From contig CAYNHV010000013.1 in NCBI GenBank assembly GCA_964397315.1, positions 1 through 34,595 of the forward strand: a DNA stretch of 34,595 nucleotides, given 5' to 3'. Below are positions 24,001 to 30,000 of the stretch, piece after piece. Position 1 is the stretch's first letter. Every line of letters starts with the position of its first letter. The position numbers are program-made. The DNA comes from an uncultured Methanosarcinales archaeon. GTDB taxonomy: Archaea > Nanobdellota > Nanobdellia > Woesearchaeales > UBA12501.

Positions 24001-27000
24001 AAGACAACGCTGATATTCACGAACACCAGGGCTGCGACAGAGAGGGTAGTGCACCACCTCAAGGAAAAATTCCCAAAGAACTACACTGAGAACATAGGCG
24101 CCCACCACGGCAGCCTGAGCAAGGAGATGAGGTTTGACATTGAGGAAAGGCTGAGGAAGGGAGAGCTCAAGGCGGTTGTGTCAAGCACGTCTCTTGAGCT
24201 AGGCATAGACATAGGATTTATTGATCTTGTTATACTCCTTGGAAGCCCTAAGAGTGTTGCAAGAGCCCTCCAGAGGATAGGCAGGTCAGGACACCGGATA
24301 CACGAGACAACAAAAGGCAGGATAATAGTGCTGGACAGGGACGACCTTGTTGAGTGCTCTGTCCTTCTGAAGTCAGCAATAGAGCGTAGGATAGACAGGG
24401 TGCACATACCCACCAACTGCCTTGATGTCCTGACCCAGCACGTGCACGGCATTGCGCTGAGCCAGAAGAGCTCCACAAAGGACCTCATGTCAATTATAAA
24501 GAGATCCTACTGCTACAGGGACATAAAGAGGAAGGATGTCATGGATGTTGTTGAATACCTTGCCGGAAGGTTTGTCTCGCTTGAGGACAGGAACATATAC
24601 GCAAAGATATGGTATGATGAGGAGTCAGGCATGGTGGGAAAGAAGGGCAGGATGAGCAGGGTTATACACATGACAAACATAGGCACCATACCCGACGAGA
24701 CTTCTGTAAAGGTAAAGATAGGCGACAGGGTGATAGGGACTCTTGAAGAGGCATTCCTTGAGAAGCTCAGGAGAGGGGACGTGTTTGTCCTTGGAGGAAG
24801 CGTGTATGAATTCCTCTACAGCAGGGGCATGACTGCCCAGGTGAGGGCATCCCCTGACAGGCCCCCCACAGTTCCCTCCTGGTTCTCTGAGATGCTGCCC
24901 CTCAGCTTTGACCTTGCGATGGAGATAGGGAGGTTCAGGAGGCTCATGGAAGAGAGAATAAGCTCTGGAAAGAGCAGGGAGGAGGTTCTTGAATTCATAA
25001 ATTCCTTCCTTTATGTTGACATGAAAGGCGCAAACGCGATATACACCTACTTCAGGGAGCAGTATGATTACGCTGGCCGGATTCCCCATGACAGGAAGAT
25101 ACTCATAGAGCACTACACTGACGAGAATAACAGGAAATATGCTGTTTTCCACACCATCTTCGGAAGGAGAGTGAATGACTGCCTGAGCAGGGCGGTTGCG
25201 TTTGCAATAAGCAGGACGCAGCACCGGGATGTTGATATTGGAGTAAGTGACAACGGCTTTTACATAGGCTCTTCAAAGCACATAAAAGTGGCCTCTGCTT
25301 TCAGGCTGCTGAAGCCAAAGGAGTTTGACAGGGTGATGAAGAATGCCATTGAGAAGACTGAAGTGCTCAAGAGAAGGTTCAGGCACTGCGCAGGAAGAGC
25401 TTTGATGATACTCAGGACCTACGCAGGAAGGAAAAAGAGGGTGGGAAGGCAGCAGGTCAACTCCATGATACTCATGAATGCAGTAAGGAGAATAGACCCT
25501 GACTTCTTCATACTGAAGGAGGCGAGAAGGGAGGTGCTTGAGGACCTGATGGACATAGACAGCGCGAGAAGGATCCTCACCAGAATATCCAACAGGGACA
25601 CGATTGAGGAGATAACAACAACAATACCCTCCCCTTTTGCTTTCAATCTTGTGCTGCAGGGAAGGGCTGACATGATGAGAATGGAGGACAAGACAGAGTT
25701 CCTCAGGAGGATGCACAAGATGGTGCAGGCAAAGATAGGTCTGAATAAATGACAAGATTTTTATACATTTCTGGAATAATTTAATAGGGGGGCATATTGG
25801 AAAGAAAAAAGACAAGGGCTGTCCGGATAGACAATTTGAATATTGGGGGCAATAACAAAATAGCTGTGCAGTCAATGTGTAACACACGCACTAAGGATAT
25901 TAATGCAACTGTCAAGCAGATACTTGAATTAGAGAAAGCTGGCTGTGACATTGTGAGGGTTGCTGTTCCTGACAAAGAATCTGTTTCTGCCCTCCCAAAG
26001 ATAAGAAGGAGAATAAGCATGCCTCTTGTTGCAGATATACATTTTGATTACAGGCTTGCAATTGAATCAGCAAGATTTGCGGATAAGATAAGAATCAACC
26101 CAGGGAATATAGGGGGCAAGGAAAAATTCAAAGATGTTCTGAAGGCTGCAAAAGAAAACTCTATTGCAGTGAGGATAGGCATCAACAGCGGATCGCTTGA
26201 GAAAGATATTGAAAAAAAATATGGAAGGACCGCCAAGGCGGTTGTAGAATCTGCCTCAAATGCATTAAAAATTGCGGAGAATTTTGGATTTGAGAACATA
26301 GTTGTTTCTCTTAAATCATCAGATGTGAAGAGCACAATAGATGCTTATAGGGTGTTCTCAGAGAGATTTGATTATCCGCTCCATGTTGGTGTGACAGAAG
26401 CAGGGCCTCTTCCAATCGGCGCTGTAAAGTCTTCTATTGGCATTGGAACCTTGCTTGCAGAAGGCATTGGTGATACAATAAGGGTCTCCCTGACTGAAAA
26501 CCCTGTTGAAGAGGTGAATGCTGCAAAAGAAATATTGAAAAGCCTTCGGTTGATGAAAGGAAGAGTATTTGTTTCCTGCCCAACATGCGGAAGAACCAAC
26601 CCAAAAGTCATTAGGATAGCAAAAGAGATTGAGAGAAAAACAAGGGGAATTGAAAAAGAGATCAAGATAGCTGTGATGGGTTGTGAGGTGAACGGCCCAG
26701 GAGAGGCAAAGGATGCTGATATTGGCATTGCCTTTTCAAAGGACAGGGTGTTTTTGTTCAAGAAAGGGAATGTAATAAAGGTTGTTGATGAAAAAGATGC
26801 TGTTTCTGCTGTTATGGAGGAGACCGGGAATATTTAAGATTTGTCCCAGATTGAAAATACACTGTTATGCTCATATACCTCTTCTCCACCGCAGATGACA
26901 GAGGTTATGTATTGCTCAATGGATTTCAGAGCAAGATGCTTTGATATTTTCCCTGCTTCGTCATATTTATCATAGCAAAAAGGCGAACCGGAATGTATGA

Positions 27001-30000
27001 ATGCCCCTCCTTGCTTTAGAAAATGGAGGATCTGTTTTATGCTTGATTCATCAGTAAATCCATTTGGAGGGAAAAGCGCCATTACAATATCAAAAGGCTC
27101 TTCAAAAGGGAGGCCCCCCCTGTAATCTGCAAAAACATCTGGTTTTGAGGGGTATCTGCCAGTCCCATAACATTCACCAGTATCCACCCCCCTATATTTT
27201 GCCTTGAATTCTGGTCTCCTGAGTATCCTTCTTGGAAAGGCTTCTCCACACCCTAAATCAAGCACTGTTCTATTAGCAAATAATCCTTGATATTCATAGA
27301 AAAAAGGCTCTATCTCTGATATCATAATAATCTCATGGTGTCTCTTGCTGCCTTCCATTACCTTTTTCTCAAGCCTTACCTCGGTTTCTATTATTTTCAT
27401 ACAGGCGGGCGCATATACTAAATATATAAACTTTACTATTTTTTAGTGATTAATTAAGATTAGGAAAAATTTTATATCAGCTAGAAAACATCTGGAAATA
27501 AAGAGTAAAATGAGAATAATGCTTGCAAAAAACATGGGAATGTGCTTCGGCGTAAAAAGAGCTCTTGAGATTGCAGAAAGGGCTCTGGAAAGGAACAAAG
27601 GGAAAAAAATCCACACCTATGGTCCATTGGTACACAACAAAGAGGTTATAAGTGGGCTTGAAAAAAAGGGTGCAAAGATTGCAGGCTCTGTTGGTGATGT
27701 TGAAAAGGGTGCTGTTCTTATAATAAGGGCCCATGGGGTATCTGACAAGGATATAGGAAAGGCAAAGGAAAAGGGAATTGAGGTTGTAGATGCGACATGC
27801 CCTTTTGTTGCAAAAGCAAAACAGGCTGCACAAGACATGGAAAAAGAAGACTTTAAGGTTGTTATCTTGGGTCAAAAAGAGCATCCAGAGGTTATAGGCA
27901 TTGCAGAGAGCCTTTCTGATCCGGTCATAGTAACAGATGCAGAAGATGTTAAGAATCTTGCAGGCAATAAGGAGTGTAATAAACTTGGTCTTATCTCCCA
28001 GACGACCCAGTCCGAGAAAGTATTCAATGATGTTGTTAAAGAATTTAAAAAACTGGACAATGGTGCAAGGATAGAAAAAACAATCTGCAGTGCAACATCA
28101 GAAAGGCAGGAATCTGCAAAAGAGACAGCTAAAAAATCTGATATCATGATTGTTGTTGGTGGTAAAAACTCTGCAAACACAAAAAAGCTCGTGGAAATCT
28201 GCTCAGGAATAACTGAAACAAAACATATTGAGAATGTATCTGGACTGGAAAAAGCATGGTTTGATGGAAAAGAGGCTGTTGGTATAACAGCTGGCGCCTC
28301 AACACCTGGCTGGATAATTGACGATGTTGTCAGGACTATTGAAAAGACACAGTAAATGCAGATATAATTGATATGGGGCACTCATTAACATGGAAATCCT
28401 AAAAGGCATCAACATAATCGACCTTGGCCTGCAGATCGGAGAAACACTAATCATCGCAGACCTTCACATAGGTTACGAGGAGGCTCTCAACAAGCAGGGA
28501 GTGATGGTTCCCAGGTTCCAGCTTGAGGATGTTCTGGCCAGGCTGGATAAGATCATAAAAAAGGCAAACCCCAAGACAATAGTGGTCAATGGCGACATCA
28601 AGCACGAGTTCGGAAGGATATCTGAGCAGGAGTGGAGGGAGACACTCCGGGTTATTGATTTCCTTCTGGAAAGATCAAAAAAGCTTGTTCTGGTGAAAGG
28701 CAATCATGACACTGTCCTGGGGCCCATAGCAGAGAAGAGGGGTGTTGAGGTAAGGGAAGAGTATGAAATAAGGGAAAAGGGGGTTCTCATAATACACGGC
28801 CACAAAATGGTCAGCATTCCTGCGCGTGTAAAGACAATAATAATAGGCCATGAGCACCCTGCTGTCTCTTTGAGGGATGGCGCCAGGGCAGAGACCTTCA
28901 AGTGCTTTCTCAGGGGGAAGTATGACCGAAAGAACCTGATAGCCATGCCCTCCTTCAACCTGGTTGCAGAGGGCACAGACGCGCTCAAGGAAGAGCTTCT
29001 CAGCCCCTTTCTCCAGCAGGATATCACCTGCTTTGAGGTGTTTGTGATAAGCGACAGGGCATATGATTTCGGAAAGCTCAGGAACCTGCTTTAACACAAC
29101 ACTTTGATGCGACAGAAAGACTTATTAACCACTCTTTCTGAATGGGTTCTATGGGTTACAGGATTCTGATGGTTGAGAAGACTGAAGAGGAGTATGAGGG
29201 AGACCATTCAGCGCTTGAATCCTATGCTGAGACAATGTCCGACATTCTCAGAGTCAAGGGAGGCCACCACGTGAGTGTTTGCTGGGGGCTGGAGAACATC
29301 ACTGAAGATGCATACAGCTCTTTTGACTGTGTTCTTATCCACCCCACAAGCGAGCAGGCCAGAAGGCTGAAAGAATTAAGGGAAAGGTATCCTGGGGTTG
29401 GCTGTGTCCTGACTCCGGGCTCTGACGCGTCCCACAATTTTGGATGCGACGGGAGGGACATACATGGAACATACATGGTGTCAAAGCCTTACAAGCTGGC
29501 TAAACTAATGGAAACCATTGATTCTGCAGTTTCAGAGGCAAGAGAGCGCGGAGAAGAGAGAAGAAATAATGCTGGGTAAGAAGATTTAGTTTTTTTTATT
29601 CCAGGGTGACGCACTGGTAATTTGTGAACCTGCATCCTGTCACCCCATACACCTCTCTGCAGTTTATGGCGCAGGTGGCTTTCCTTGCTGTAAGCGGAAC
29701 ATTCTTTACAGGATAACAGTTGCAGTCGCACGGGCTCAGGAAACACTTGTCATCCCCTGATGGTGTTATCTCAAGGCTTTTCAGGGAGTCCCCGCCTGAG
29801 TCCCCACCTGATGCGGTTGTGTCTTCTGCAGGCGCGCTTCCAGAAGAGCCAGCGCTGCCTGTCTCCACTGTTTGTGTGTCCTCACTGCAGCCTGCAAGCA
29901 GAAGAATCGTAAGTGCCAGCGCTGAAAGCAAGGCAATCATTGTGTGGGTTTTCATAAGAACAAAAGAAACCTCTTTCTTTTTAAATATTGCCTTTCTTCC

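Follow-up and report, generated by a model that had tools for sequence, protein, structure and literature searches.

Organisation of the ispG-ispH locus

The window, i.e. the whole stretch of 34,595 nucleotides that was analysed, harbours genes for two MEP-pathway enzymes, IspG and IspH, between two conserved flanking genes. The left flank is a gene for an Lhr-type helicase (23167..25752, plus strand) with DEAD, Helicase_C, WH_Lhr and DEAD_assoc domains, which scores 1206.6 bits against NF010338 and is 73–75% identical to the corresponding flank in the relatives G346 and G406. After a gap of 44 bp follows ispG (GcpE, HMBPP synthase; 25797..26837, plus strand), which starts with TTG and encodes 346 aa. 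The next gene, orf188 (26834..27400), is located on the minus strand, convergent with ispG and divergent from ispH (LytB, HMBPP reductase; 27510..28355, plus strand, 281 aa), and the starts of orf188 and ispH are separated by an AT-rich spacer of 109 bp (27401..27509, GC 0.257) that is probably a shared promoter region. The right flank, 34 bp downstream of ispH, encodes an SbcD-related, PdeM-like phosphoesterase (28390..29094, plus strand; 199.4 bits against TIGR00024) with 64% identity to the flank of G376, G346 and G406. The genome-wide survey's note described ispG and ispH as an orphan pair lying side by side; both genes are intact, with orf188 placed between them.

Searching Pfam with orf188 gave only weak matches to methyltransferases (E 0.002–0.19), and three homologues were found, all metagenomic and with 58–74% identity, one of which carries precomputed Methyltransf_23/25 domains. 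When its AlphaFold model (mean pLDDT 73.2) was run through Foldseek the top matches were all SAM methyltransferases, e.g. 2p8j, NodS, OvoM and Bud23, pointing to a class I SAM-methyltransferase-like fold. An ORF of the same orientation can be found at this position in G406 but the similarity is weak (31.6 bits, 21% over 164 aa).

The order Lhr helicase, IspG, small ORF, IspH and PdeM-like phosphoesterase is found again in G406, a member of a second genus, with 68% identity for IspG and 55% for IspH. In addition, a single contig of 7936 bp covers positions 22000–29615, and two other runs of that study yielded contigs that bridge both junctions of the locus. Since the gene order recurs in G406 and independent contigs bridge both junctions, the orphan pair is not an artefact of assembly or binning.

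Conserved residues in IspG and IspH

The IspG sequence matches the Pfam family GcpE over model positions 1–340 of 343 (477.9 bits, E 2.1e-143) and passes both the curated NCBIfam model NF001540 (455.4 bits, cut-off 345) and TIGR00612 (408.9 bits, cut-off 280.25). The best solved relative is IspG of Aquifex (3noy, E 1.4e-100), which aligns from end to end, and this alignment was used to judge the presence of motifs. The ligands of the [4Fe-4S] cluster, which we take to be a CxxC pair, a third Cys and a Glu within GCxVNGPGE, are all retained in the sequences CPTC at 261 and GCEVNGPGE at 295 (three Cys and the Glu), and both motifs are also present in IspG of G406. The protein looks catalytically competent and is predicted to reduce MEcPP to HMBPP. 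A tree of IspG sequences places it inside a single Woesearchaeal clade, apart from the 28 sampled bacterial sequences (SH-aLRT 91).

IspH matches the complete Pfam model LYTB (positions 1–267 of 267, 296.7 bits, E 1.8e-88) and the curated TIGR00216 (287.7 bits, cut-off 187.85), with IspH of Aquifex (3dnf, E 2.5e-61) as the best solved relative. Alignment to 3dnf and E. coli IspH showed that Cys12, His42, His75, Cys97, His125, Glu127, Thr165, Cys193, Ser221, Asn223 and Ser264 are retained, and none of the 13 clade members, the window protein included, deviates at these 11 ligand and substrate positions. From E. coli IspH the three cysteines are presumed to hold the cluster, and the His, Glu, Thr, Ser and Asn residues to bind the substrate. 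As judged from these residues, IspH also looks competent, as a predicted reductase of HMBPP to IPP and DMAPP. The scores agree with those from which the two genes had been named in the genome-wide survey's note (GcpE at 1e-144 and LYTB at 1e-89, each together with an equivalog model).

Promiscuous activities have been reported for IspH, on acetylenes and in the formation of isoprene (PMC4864966), and the enzymes might accordingly act on other substrates without any link to isoprenoids. This is highly improbable: both proteins pass equivalog models, the HMBPP-binding residues are kept, and in relatives the genomic linkage is to prenyl synthases and IDI.

Absence of the upstream MEP genes and of a mevalonate pathway

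A six-frame family search of the genome gave at best 13.4 bits for Dxr, 25.5 bits for IspD (cut-off 27) and 11.7 bits for GHMP_kinases_N, the type of IspE and mevalonate kinase, and no match for IspF or HMG-CoA reductase, reproducing the figures behind the survey's claim that upstream MEP enzymes and a mevalonate pathway are lacking. Nothing was found by tblastn of the genome with Woesearchaeal Dxr, IspD, IspE and IspF. The single Dxs-like match is, as the survey had it, a transketolase (819 bits against NF004559; 204 bits against the dxs model with a cut-off of 466). Isopentenyl-phosphate kinase (IPK) is absent (best IPPK_Arch score 36.7 bits, cut-off 120), and the four AA_kinase proteins turned out to be aspartokinase, ArgB, a ProB-like protein and PyrH. 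The genome hence holds no complete MEP pathway (Dxs, Dxr, IspD, IspE, IspF) and no variant of the mevalonate pathway as judged from HMG-CoA reductase (HMGR), the GHMP-type mevalonate kinase and IPK.

The family UBA12501 had been said to lack Dxr as a whole and to carry IspG in 2 of 17 genomes. Both counts were recovered, and IspF and IspE were likewise above the cut-off in none of the 17 genomes, some of them rated 98–100% complete; IspH was present in three of six other family genomes sampled. In G406 no Dxr, IspF, IspE or IspD was found above the cut-off.

The genome is a MAG of 61 contigs and 93% complete, which counts against a salvage role of the pair, and the survey's caveat was that MEP genes may be hidden in the missing 7%. 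The MEP genes of relatives are clustered, so one missing or mis-binned contig could hide several of them. However, in the relatives with a full pathway the cluster includes IspG and IspH, whereas the pair studied here lies in mid-contig without the rest. This position, the bridged junctions, the absence of the upstream genes from G406, which has the same locus, and the zero counts in the family, also in genomes rated 100% complete, make incompleteness an unlikely cause of the missing genes; that the upstream genes lie in the unassembled 7% or in a mis-binned contig is very improbable.

Isoprenoid consumers and reductants

Consumers of IPP and DMAPP are present as previously claimed: two loci for trans-prenyl synthases (GGPPS-like), two for cis-prenyl synthases (UPPS) and CarS (116.9 bits) were confirmed, while GGGPS and a UbiA-type DGGGPS were not found in the genome. 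For the reductant, which the survey had left unexamined, the genome offers two candidates: pyruvate:ferredoxin oxidoreductase (POR), whose alpha subunit scores 258.6 bits, and a protein resembling flavodoxin with 29.2 bits.

Truncated MEP pathways in the order Woesearchaeales

Among 401 genomes of the order IspG was found in 66 and IspH in 99. IspH occurs without IspG in 36 genomes and IspG without IspH in three, two of which have Dxr and are 84–86% complete. Dxr was present in 50 and absent in 12 of 62 genomes with IspG, and absent from all 18 IspH-only genomes tested, and HMGR was found in none of 39 truncated or IspH-only genomes. In G010 a deletion scar joins residues 1–79 of IspG to a frameshifted remnant of IspE, beside intact IspH, GGPPS and UPPS. 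The loss of the MEP pathway in the order runs directionally from its top, and the pair is one rung in a graded series of pathways truncated in this way rather than an isolated oddity.

The surroundings of IspH in these relatives give clues to its role. Of 21 IspH-only loci, 10 have UPPS no more than 3.5 kb from IspH, and in four more places the neighbour is a polyprenyl synthase. Fusions of IspH to a GGPPS-type synthase occur in G168, an IspH-only genome, and in G039 and G042, and an IspE-IspH fusion is also found among the relatives, while in G346 a type 1 IDI is situated directly upstream of IspH, at the position held by IspG in the window. This suggests that orphan IspH serves prenyl-chain synthesis in the relatives.

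When ORFs around the 21 IspH-only loci were clustered, no conserved unknown neighbour appeared; only UPPS and polyprenyl synthases were widely shared. This bears on the proposal that non-homologous enzymes, not recognisable as such, convert central metabolites into MEcPP or HMBPP without any import. Alternatives for early MEP steps do exist in bacteria, many of which are without Dxs, according to PMC10663253, and some cases require MEP from an unknown source or an unrecognised analogue of Dxr. Five steps would nevertheless need to be replaced at once in the present genome and orf188 has a generic methyltransferase fold, so we consider such a route quite unlikely.

Other observations raise the question of whether the pair is needed. 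UPPS is present in 348 of the 401 genomes, against 99 with IspH, and at least 249 have a cis-prenyl synthase without IspH. The lineage therefore has another source of C5 units, so that the pair is not evidently essential and may be an add-on and not the sole source. The two genes could then be relics of a decaying MEP cluster carrying little or no flux, or accessory genes of another purpose, e.g. removing or sensing MEcPP or HMBPP that leaks in, with a host supplying the isoprenoid units in the form of IPP/DMAPP or longer prenyl compounds. The scar in G010 shows that decay takes place in this pathway and the patchy presence of IspG and IspH in the family is in line with such an explanation, as is the lack of isoprenoid genes beside the pair. 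Still, it is rather unlikely: none of the ligands or catalytic residues has been lost from any of the 13 clade IspH or from either IspG, the gene order is common to two genera at 55–68% identity, and the fusion or adjacency of orphan IspH to prenyl synthases and IDI makes sense only if IspH supplies them.

Proposed salvage of bacterial intermediates

The reading that we find best, with a probability of about one half, is that orphan IspG and IspH salvage MEcPP or HMBPP from a host. The most economical explanation is that the pair acts in isoprenoid synthesis on material from outside the cell, because it is intact, the upstream genes are undetectable, the gene order is kept in G406, consumers are present and IspH of relatives is linked to prenyl synthases and IDI. 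The locus would be a working remnant of a bacterial-type MEP pathway, acquired long ago by Woesearchaeales, of which just the two iron-sulfur enzymes of the final steps are left. MEcPP, and perhaps also HMBPP, would enter the cell from another organism, most likely a bacterium that runs the MEP pathway and that the archaeon is attached to; IspG would reduce MEcPP to HMBPP and IspH would reduce HMBPP to IPP and DMAPP, which may feed the two trans-prenyl and two cis-prenyl synthases for GGPP and polyprenyl or dolichyl carriers. The flavodoxin-like protein would act as electron donor, or else ferredoxin that pyruvate:ferredoxin oxidoreductase has reduced. Uptake itself, the identity of the imported intermediate, the organism that provides it, the electron donor and the existence of a flux are all inferred.

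Several observations weigh against salvage. We know of no transporter for MEcPP, HMBPP or IPP and identified none, and no membrane protein is conserved beside the genes. DNA-repair genes, not isoprenoid genes, surround the pair, the GC3 of the IspG-IspH block is 0.33–0.375 compared to ~0.6 in the flanks, and the terminal branch of the window IspG is long (0.6, median 0.22). The presence of IspG in only two of 17 family genomes means that it is dispensable on a short evolutionary time scale. As GGGPS and DGGGPS were not found, the cell may require few isoprenoid units. The survey's note held that the pair can only work on imported MEcPP or HMBPP, by salvage and not by a complete MEP pathway; the absence of the complete pathway stands, while salvage is inferred and the word "only" goes too far in view of the many genomes with UPPS but no IspH.

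A bacterial partner is plausible for this archaeon. The genome encodes a protein of 1452 aa in which an SLT lytic transglycosylase domain scores 69.1 bits, a protein type read by Castelle et al. 2021 as a hint of bacterial hosts (PMC8204110), and DNA of the window was found in microbial-mat metagenomes. MEcPP may also be at hand in the surroundings of cells: E. coli has been reported to efflux it (PMC3487848), and it is described as remarkably stable (PMC13001223). A tentative extension is that orphan IspH, or IspG together with IspH, marks Woesearchaeales that live on bacteria and draw off MEP intermediates of their host. MEcPP may then be the main currency, since it is stable and is accumulated and exported by bacteria; IspG would give access to MEcPP and IspH alone only to HMBPP, and orf188 might belong to the same module.

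To our knowledge most DPANN archaea encode prenyl synthases and no precursor pathway. The terminal part of the MEP pathway offers a concrete and testable proposal for their isoprenoid supply, namely uptake of MEcPP or HMBPP followed by two known steps, and a possible genomic marker of a bacterial rather than an archaeal host. If the tentative extension is true, it would represent cross-domain metabolic parasitism on a bacteria-specific metabolite, allow the domain of the host to be predicted from the genome and explain the isoprenoid units in part of DPANN. The series within one order, from the full pathway over the loss of Dxr to IspG with IspH and finally IspH alone, amounts to a natural experiment in which a pathway gained by horizontal transfer is worn down from its upper end when its intermediates can be obtained from outside. 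It also calls for caution in metagenome surveys, where a match to IspG or IspH alone does not mean that the MEP pathway is present.

Comparison with known systems

A complete bacterial-type MEP pathway has been reported in Woesearchaeota (PMC8204110; PMC8421398), both papers citing Castelle & Banfield 2018. The enzymes are homologous, as reflected by the single Woesearchaeal clade of IspG, and GGGPS and DGGGPS are absent both here and in the genomes of Huang et al. 2021 (PMC8421398). However, in the genomes reported there the genes for Dxs, Dxr, IspD/F and IspE lie together in one cluster, whereas the present genome and G406 hold the last two steps only, at a different locus among DNA-repair genes.

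Listeria also retains part of the pathway with MEcPP as the breakpoint metabolite, but as a mirror image: as described in PMC13001223 its truncated pathway stops at MEcPP, with IspG and IspH absent or defective, and the top half, which makes MEcPP, is combined with a complete mevalonate pathway, while the archaeon has the bottom half and no mevalonate pathway. Rickettsia parkeri (PMC6854040) and Mycoplasma genitalium (PMC13001223) are reported to scavenge isoprenoids from the host and resemble the archaeon as reduced symbionts that encode prenyl synthases without a precursor pathway, but they are thought to take up IPP/DMAPP or finished isoprenoids and, by these accounts, keep no MEP enzyme that could act on an upstream intermediate. 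IspH of the window is unfused, and a fusion of IspH to a polyprenyl synthase is not among the fusions named in the abstract of PMC4746011; the IspH-RPS1 and IspH-UbiA fusions called 'Rosetta stone' proteins there are nevertheless comparable to the IspH-GGPPS and IspE-IspH proteins of the relatives, in that the fusion partner hints at the function.

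The IspG-IspH pair and the search for the rest of the pathway

The genome-wide survey's note had reported the last two enzymes of the MEP pathway without any upstream genes, and this was confirmed for the window genome (1.47 Mb in 61 contigs, completeness rating 93%). Both genes are full length and on the plus strand of contig C13 of this genome, which is the window. IspG (25797–26837) matches Pfam GcpE with 477.9 bits and the NCBIfam equivalog NF001540 with 455.4 bits (cut-off 345), while IspH (27510–28355) matches LYTB with 296.7 bits and TIGR00216 with 287.7 bits (cut-off 187.85). 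When aligned to Aquifex IspG (3noy) the motifs CPTC and GCEVNGPGE are kept, and alignment of IspH to the proteins of Aquifex (3dnf) and E. coli showed that the three cysteines and eight substrate-binding residues are also kept. The two proteins are ordinary members of their families and it is the genomic context that departs.

Six-frame family searches of the genome, agreeing with the survey's own figures, gave at best 13.4 bits for Dxr and 11.7 bits for GHMP kinases, no match to IspF or HMG-CoA reductase, and for IspD 25.5 bits, which is below the cut-off of 27 and covers the N-terminal nucleotidyltransferase motif only. Tblastn with Dxr, IspD, IspE and IspF from Woesearchaeal carriers revealed nothing better than E 0.01 in the same genome. 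The candidate for Dxs is a transketolase (NF004559, 819 bits), and the sole candidate for an IPP isomerase (IDI) is a Nudix protein that reaches 62 bits where the cut-off is 127 and was not called as such. Salvage of isopentenyl phosphate was rejected as an alternative route, the four proteins with amino-acid-kinase fold being an aspartokinase, ArgB, a ProB-like protein and an archaeal PyrH, with no isopentenyl phosphate kinase (IPK) found among them. As a side observation, the aspartokinase (contig C2, 44309–45670), the acetylglutamate kinase (C26, 16142–16984) and the glutamate-5-kinase-like protein (C16, 2728–3630) represent an amino-acid biosynthetic capacity above the DPANN norm.

Consumers of the end products are present as two GGPPS-like loci, two UPPS loci and CarS. 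Searches of the genome for GGGPS and UbiA-type prenyltransferases gave no result, a lack described also for MEP-carrying Woesearchaeota (Huang et al. 2021, PMC8421398).

Synteny, assembly and base composition

Across all 17 genomes of the family, several of them rated 98–100% complete, Dxr was found in none and neither IspF nor IspE reached the cut-off in any. IspG is present in 2 of the 17 and is thus dispensable within the family. The second carrier, G406, belongs to another genus (87% complete) and shares the window's gene order: Lhr, IspG, an opposite-strand ORF, IspH, PdeM, a small ORF, PCNA and RNase J; IspD over the cut-off was not found in it. Identity between the two genomes is 68% for IspG and 55% for IspH, and at such protein identities synonymous sites are saturated. 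In G346, an IspH-only family genome (98% complete), the same slot reads Lhr, type 1 IDI, IspH and PdeM, with the isomerase (L037:6937–7464; NF002995, 154 bits against 127) directly upstream of IspH in the position held by IspG in the window. The contig of G376, from the same genus as the window genome, stops 329 bp upstream of IspH and its lack of IspG is therefore uninformative.

A public contig of 7936 bp covers window positions 22000–29615 with zero differences, and contigs of two additional runs reach across the Lhr/IspG and IspH/PdeM junctions. The three runs belong to a single microbial-mat study, and one of them is perhaps the source sample. Since Dxr, IspF and IspE are lacking family-wide, the locus recurs in G406 and the junctions are bridged, incompleteness or mis-assembly is disfavoured as the cause of the orphan pair.

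According to family matches the block is flanked by the helicase Lhr (23167–25752, plus strand) and a PdeM/SbcD-like phosphoesterase (28390–29094, plus strand) that usually accompanies it, and further out by PCNA, RNase J, TrmB and anaerobic ribonucleotide reductase. The contig is archaeal and from an anaerobe. Bacterial contamination of the bin was rejected, the flanks being archaeal (PCNA, TrmB, Lhr, RNase J, KaiC-like) and syntenic with three family genomes. The reductase set at 54–3846 consists of activase (radical SAM), NrdD and NrdR, and fits an anaerobic life suiting the oxygen-sensitive IspG and IspH.

The GC3 of the block is 0.33–0.375 compared to 0.58–0.62 in the flanking Lhr, PdeM, PCNA and RNase J. 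Low values were also seen in a response regulator (22356–22787; 0.38) and an 82-aa ORF (22922–23170; 0.29), whereas in G406 IspG and IspH match their flanks in GC3. Mis-assembly as the origin of this island was rejected in view of the 7936-bp contig and the two runs that bridge both junctions; the block may have been replaced by an allele of a lower-GC relative.

Graded truncation across the order

The order was sampled evenly with 401 genomes. With presence defined as a match over the cut-off, IspG was found in 66 of them and IspH in 99; 63 carry both, 36 IspH only and 3 IspG only. Dxr was then searched for in 62 IspG genomes that are published and in the best 18 of those with IspH only (17 other IspH-only and five unpublished genomes were excluded) and was present in 50 of the former and none of the latter. 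The 30 Dxr-less genomes were searched for IspF, IspE and IspD together with five positive controls, all of which carry the three genes. Among the Dxr-less genomes IspD, IspE and IspF are retained together in four genomes of group f11 and in G041, while G042 has IspD and IspE, G178 has the same two alongside IspH, and G115 has an IspE-like protein of 135.6 bits, below the cut-off of 138.7. G174 carries IspG and IspH alone, as does the window genome. In 16 IspH-only genomes Dxr, IspE and IspF are all absent, one of them (G102) giving a marginal 26-bit match to the IspD motif. HMG-CoA reductase was found in 0 of 39 truncated or IspH-only genomes. Arranged together, the genomes form a series that starts with the full pathway and passes through loss of Dxr, then through retention of just IspG and IspH, to IspH alone, that is, loss from the top with IspH kept longest.

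The four Dxr-less genomes of f11 (g144) are 0.9–1.1 Mb in size, and in L046 (G214, contig C12) and the other genomes of this group the cluster reads UPPS, IspH, IspE, IspF, IspD, IspG and GGPPS. The former MEP cluster of G010 (L044:2700–6900) bears a deletion scar. Its order is GGPPS, residues 1–79 of IspG directly joined to a frameshifted IspE remnant, IspH and UPPS, with GGPPS, IspH and UPPS intact.

Origin of the two genes

A quick tree of the 30 best-scoring IspG loci and five others placed the window IspG inside a single Woesearchaeal clade apart from 28 sampled bacterial sequences (SH-aLRT 91), in a subclade where full-pathway and truncated genomes are mixed; its end branch is 0.6, the median being 0.22. 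Relatives retrieved by narrow peptide patterns were bacterial only (43–60% identity) and were taken as outgroups. The window IspH groups, with support 99, with G376, G346, G406 (identical to P0006) and nine other metagenomic proteins, the metagenomic members being Woesearchaeota or Nanoarchaeota wherever a name is given. Both genes are thus long resident in the lineage, in agreement with one old acquisition from bacteria as put forward in PMC8421398, PMC8204110 and PMC6107057.

Orphan IspH in relatives

Of 21 IspH-only loci examined, 10 have a UPPS-family gene at most 3.5 kb from IspH and 4 have an adjoining polyprenyl synthase. The idea of a hidden enzyme beside the orphan IspH was rejected after clustering of the ORFs within that distance, which returned UPPS (10), polyprenyl synthase, AMMECR1 (3) and small pairs only, with no other unknown family common to more than 3–4 of the loci. 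In G168 (IspH-only, 97% complete) a single protein joins IspH and a GGPPS-type synthase (L060:4912–6804), and the same kind of fusion occurs in G039 (full pathway; L081:825–2708) and G042 (L043:1370–3196), the three proteins being 608–630 aa. These fusions, together with the isomerase beside IspH in G346, tie the orphan IspH to prenyl-chain precursors, so that it probably serves the supply of IPP and DMAPP and has no unrelated role. IspE-IspH fusions of 540–544 aa were observed in G023, G187 and G096, and in the IspH-only genome G147 a RuBisCO large-subunit homologue (L055:2197–3495) adjoins IspH.

Substrate supply

Without the upstream enzymes IspG would require MEcPP from outside. The survey's note had concluded that the pair can only work on imported MEcPP or HMBPP, a salvage of a bacterial intermediate; salvage is the best reading, at about even odds and unproven, but the import is what we infer and a sole dependence on the pair is doubtful. 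UPPS is present in 348 of the 401 order genomes compared to IspH in 99, leaving at least 249 with a cis-prenyl synthase and no IspH, and since MEP is the sole route that Huang et al. (PMC8421398) report in Woesearchaeota, C5 units or prenyl chains probably reach these archaea by other means. Perhaps the orphan pair adds to the host metabolites that can be used and is not the sole source.

Against salvage also speak the lack of a known importer for MEcPP or HMBPP and of a known host, and the presence of IspG in just 2 of the 17 family genomes. Under the salvage reading the electrons could come from pyruvate:ferredoxin oxidoreductase and a flavodoxin-like protein, both encoded in the genome. Export of MEcPP by bacteria is described for E. 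coli (PMC3487848), and the compound is reported to be unusually stable and to build up under oxidative stress (PMC13001223). The DNA is present in microbial-mat metagenomes, and full-pathway Woesearchaeales are a conceivable source of MEcPP as well. Contig C14 of the genome (29941–34299, L146) codes for a 1452-aa protein in which an SLT lytic transglycosylase domain (69.1 bits) is combined with NAGPA phosphodiester glycosidase and Peptidase_C39-like domains. It is possibly a peptidoglycan-attacking surface protein, and Castelle et al. 2021 (PMC8204110) see in this protein type a hint that some Woesearchaeota live as episymbionts on bacteria.

The partial MEP pathways known from bacteria lack the bottom steps; that of Listeria stops at MEcPP (PMC13001223), in contrast to the window archaeon, which has the terminal steps only. 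Scavengers like Rickettsia and Mycoplasma retain no MEP enzyme whereas here IspG and IspH are kept, and a comparison of 4,400 species of bacteria (PMC10663253) saw no pattern bypassing IspG/IspH. No account of MEP modules confined to the terminal steps, or of salvage of MEcPP/HMBPP, in DPANN was found in the literature searched, outside which Castelle & Banfield 2018 and the supplementary tables of Castelle 2021 and Huang 2021 may show partial patterns. The orphan pair is of real interest for DPANN symbiosis and isoprenoid evolution.

The ORF between IspG and IspH

On the minus strand between the two genes lies orf188 (26834–27400, 188 aa), separated from IspH by a spacer of 109 bp with 26% GC. 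Its predicted fold is that of a class I SAM methyltransferase (mean pLDDT 73.2), and a fold search returned generic SAM methyltransferases only, with nothing pointing to a substrate. Three metagenomic homologues show 58–74% identity; one of them, P0124, is on a 3176-bp contig and the IspH homologue P0012 is on a contig of equal length, perhaps the same one. In this clade the small SAM-methyltransferase-like family keeps its place between the IspG and IspH genes, with a possible positional counterpart in G406.
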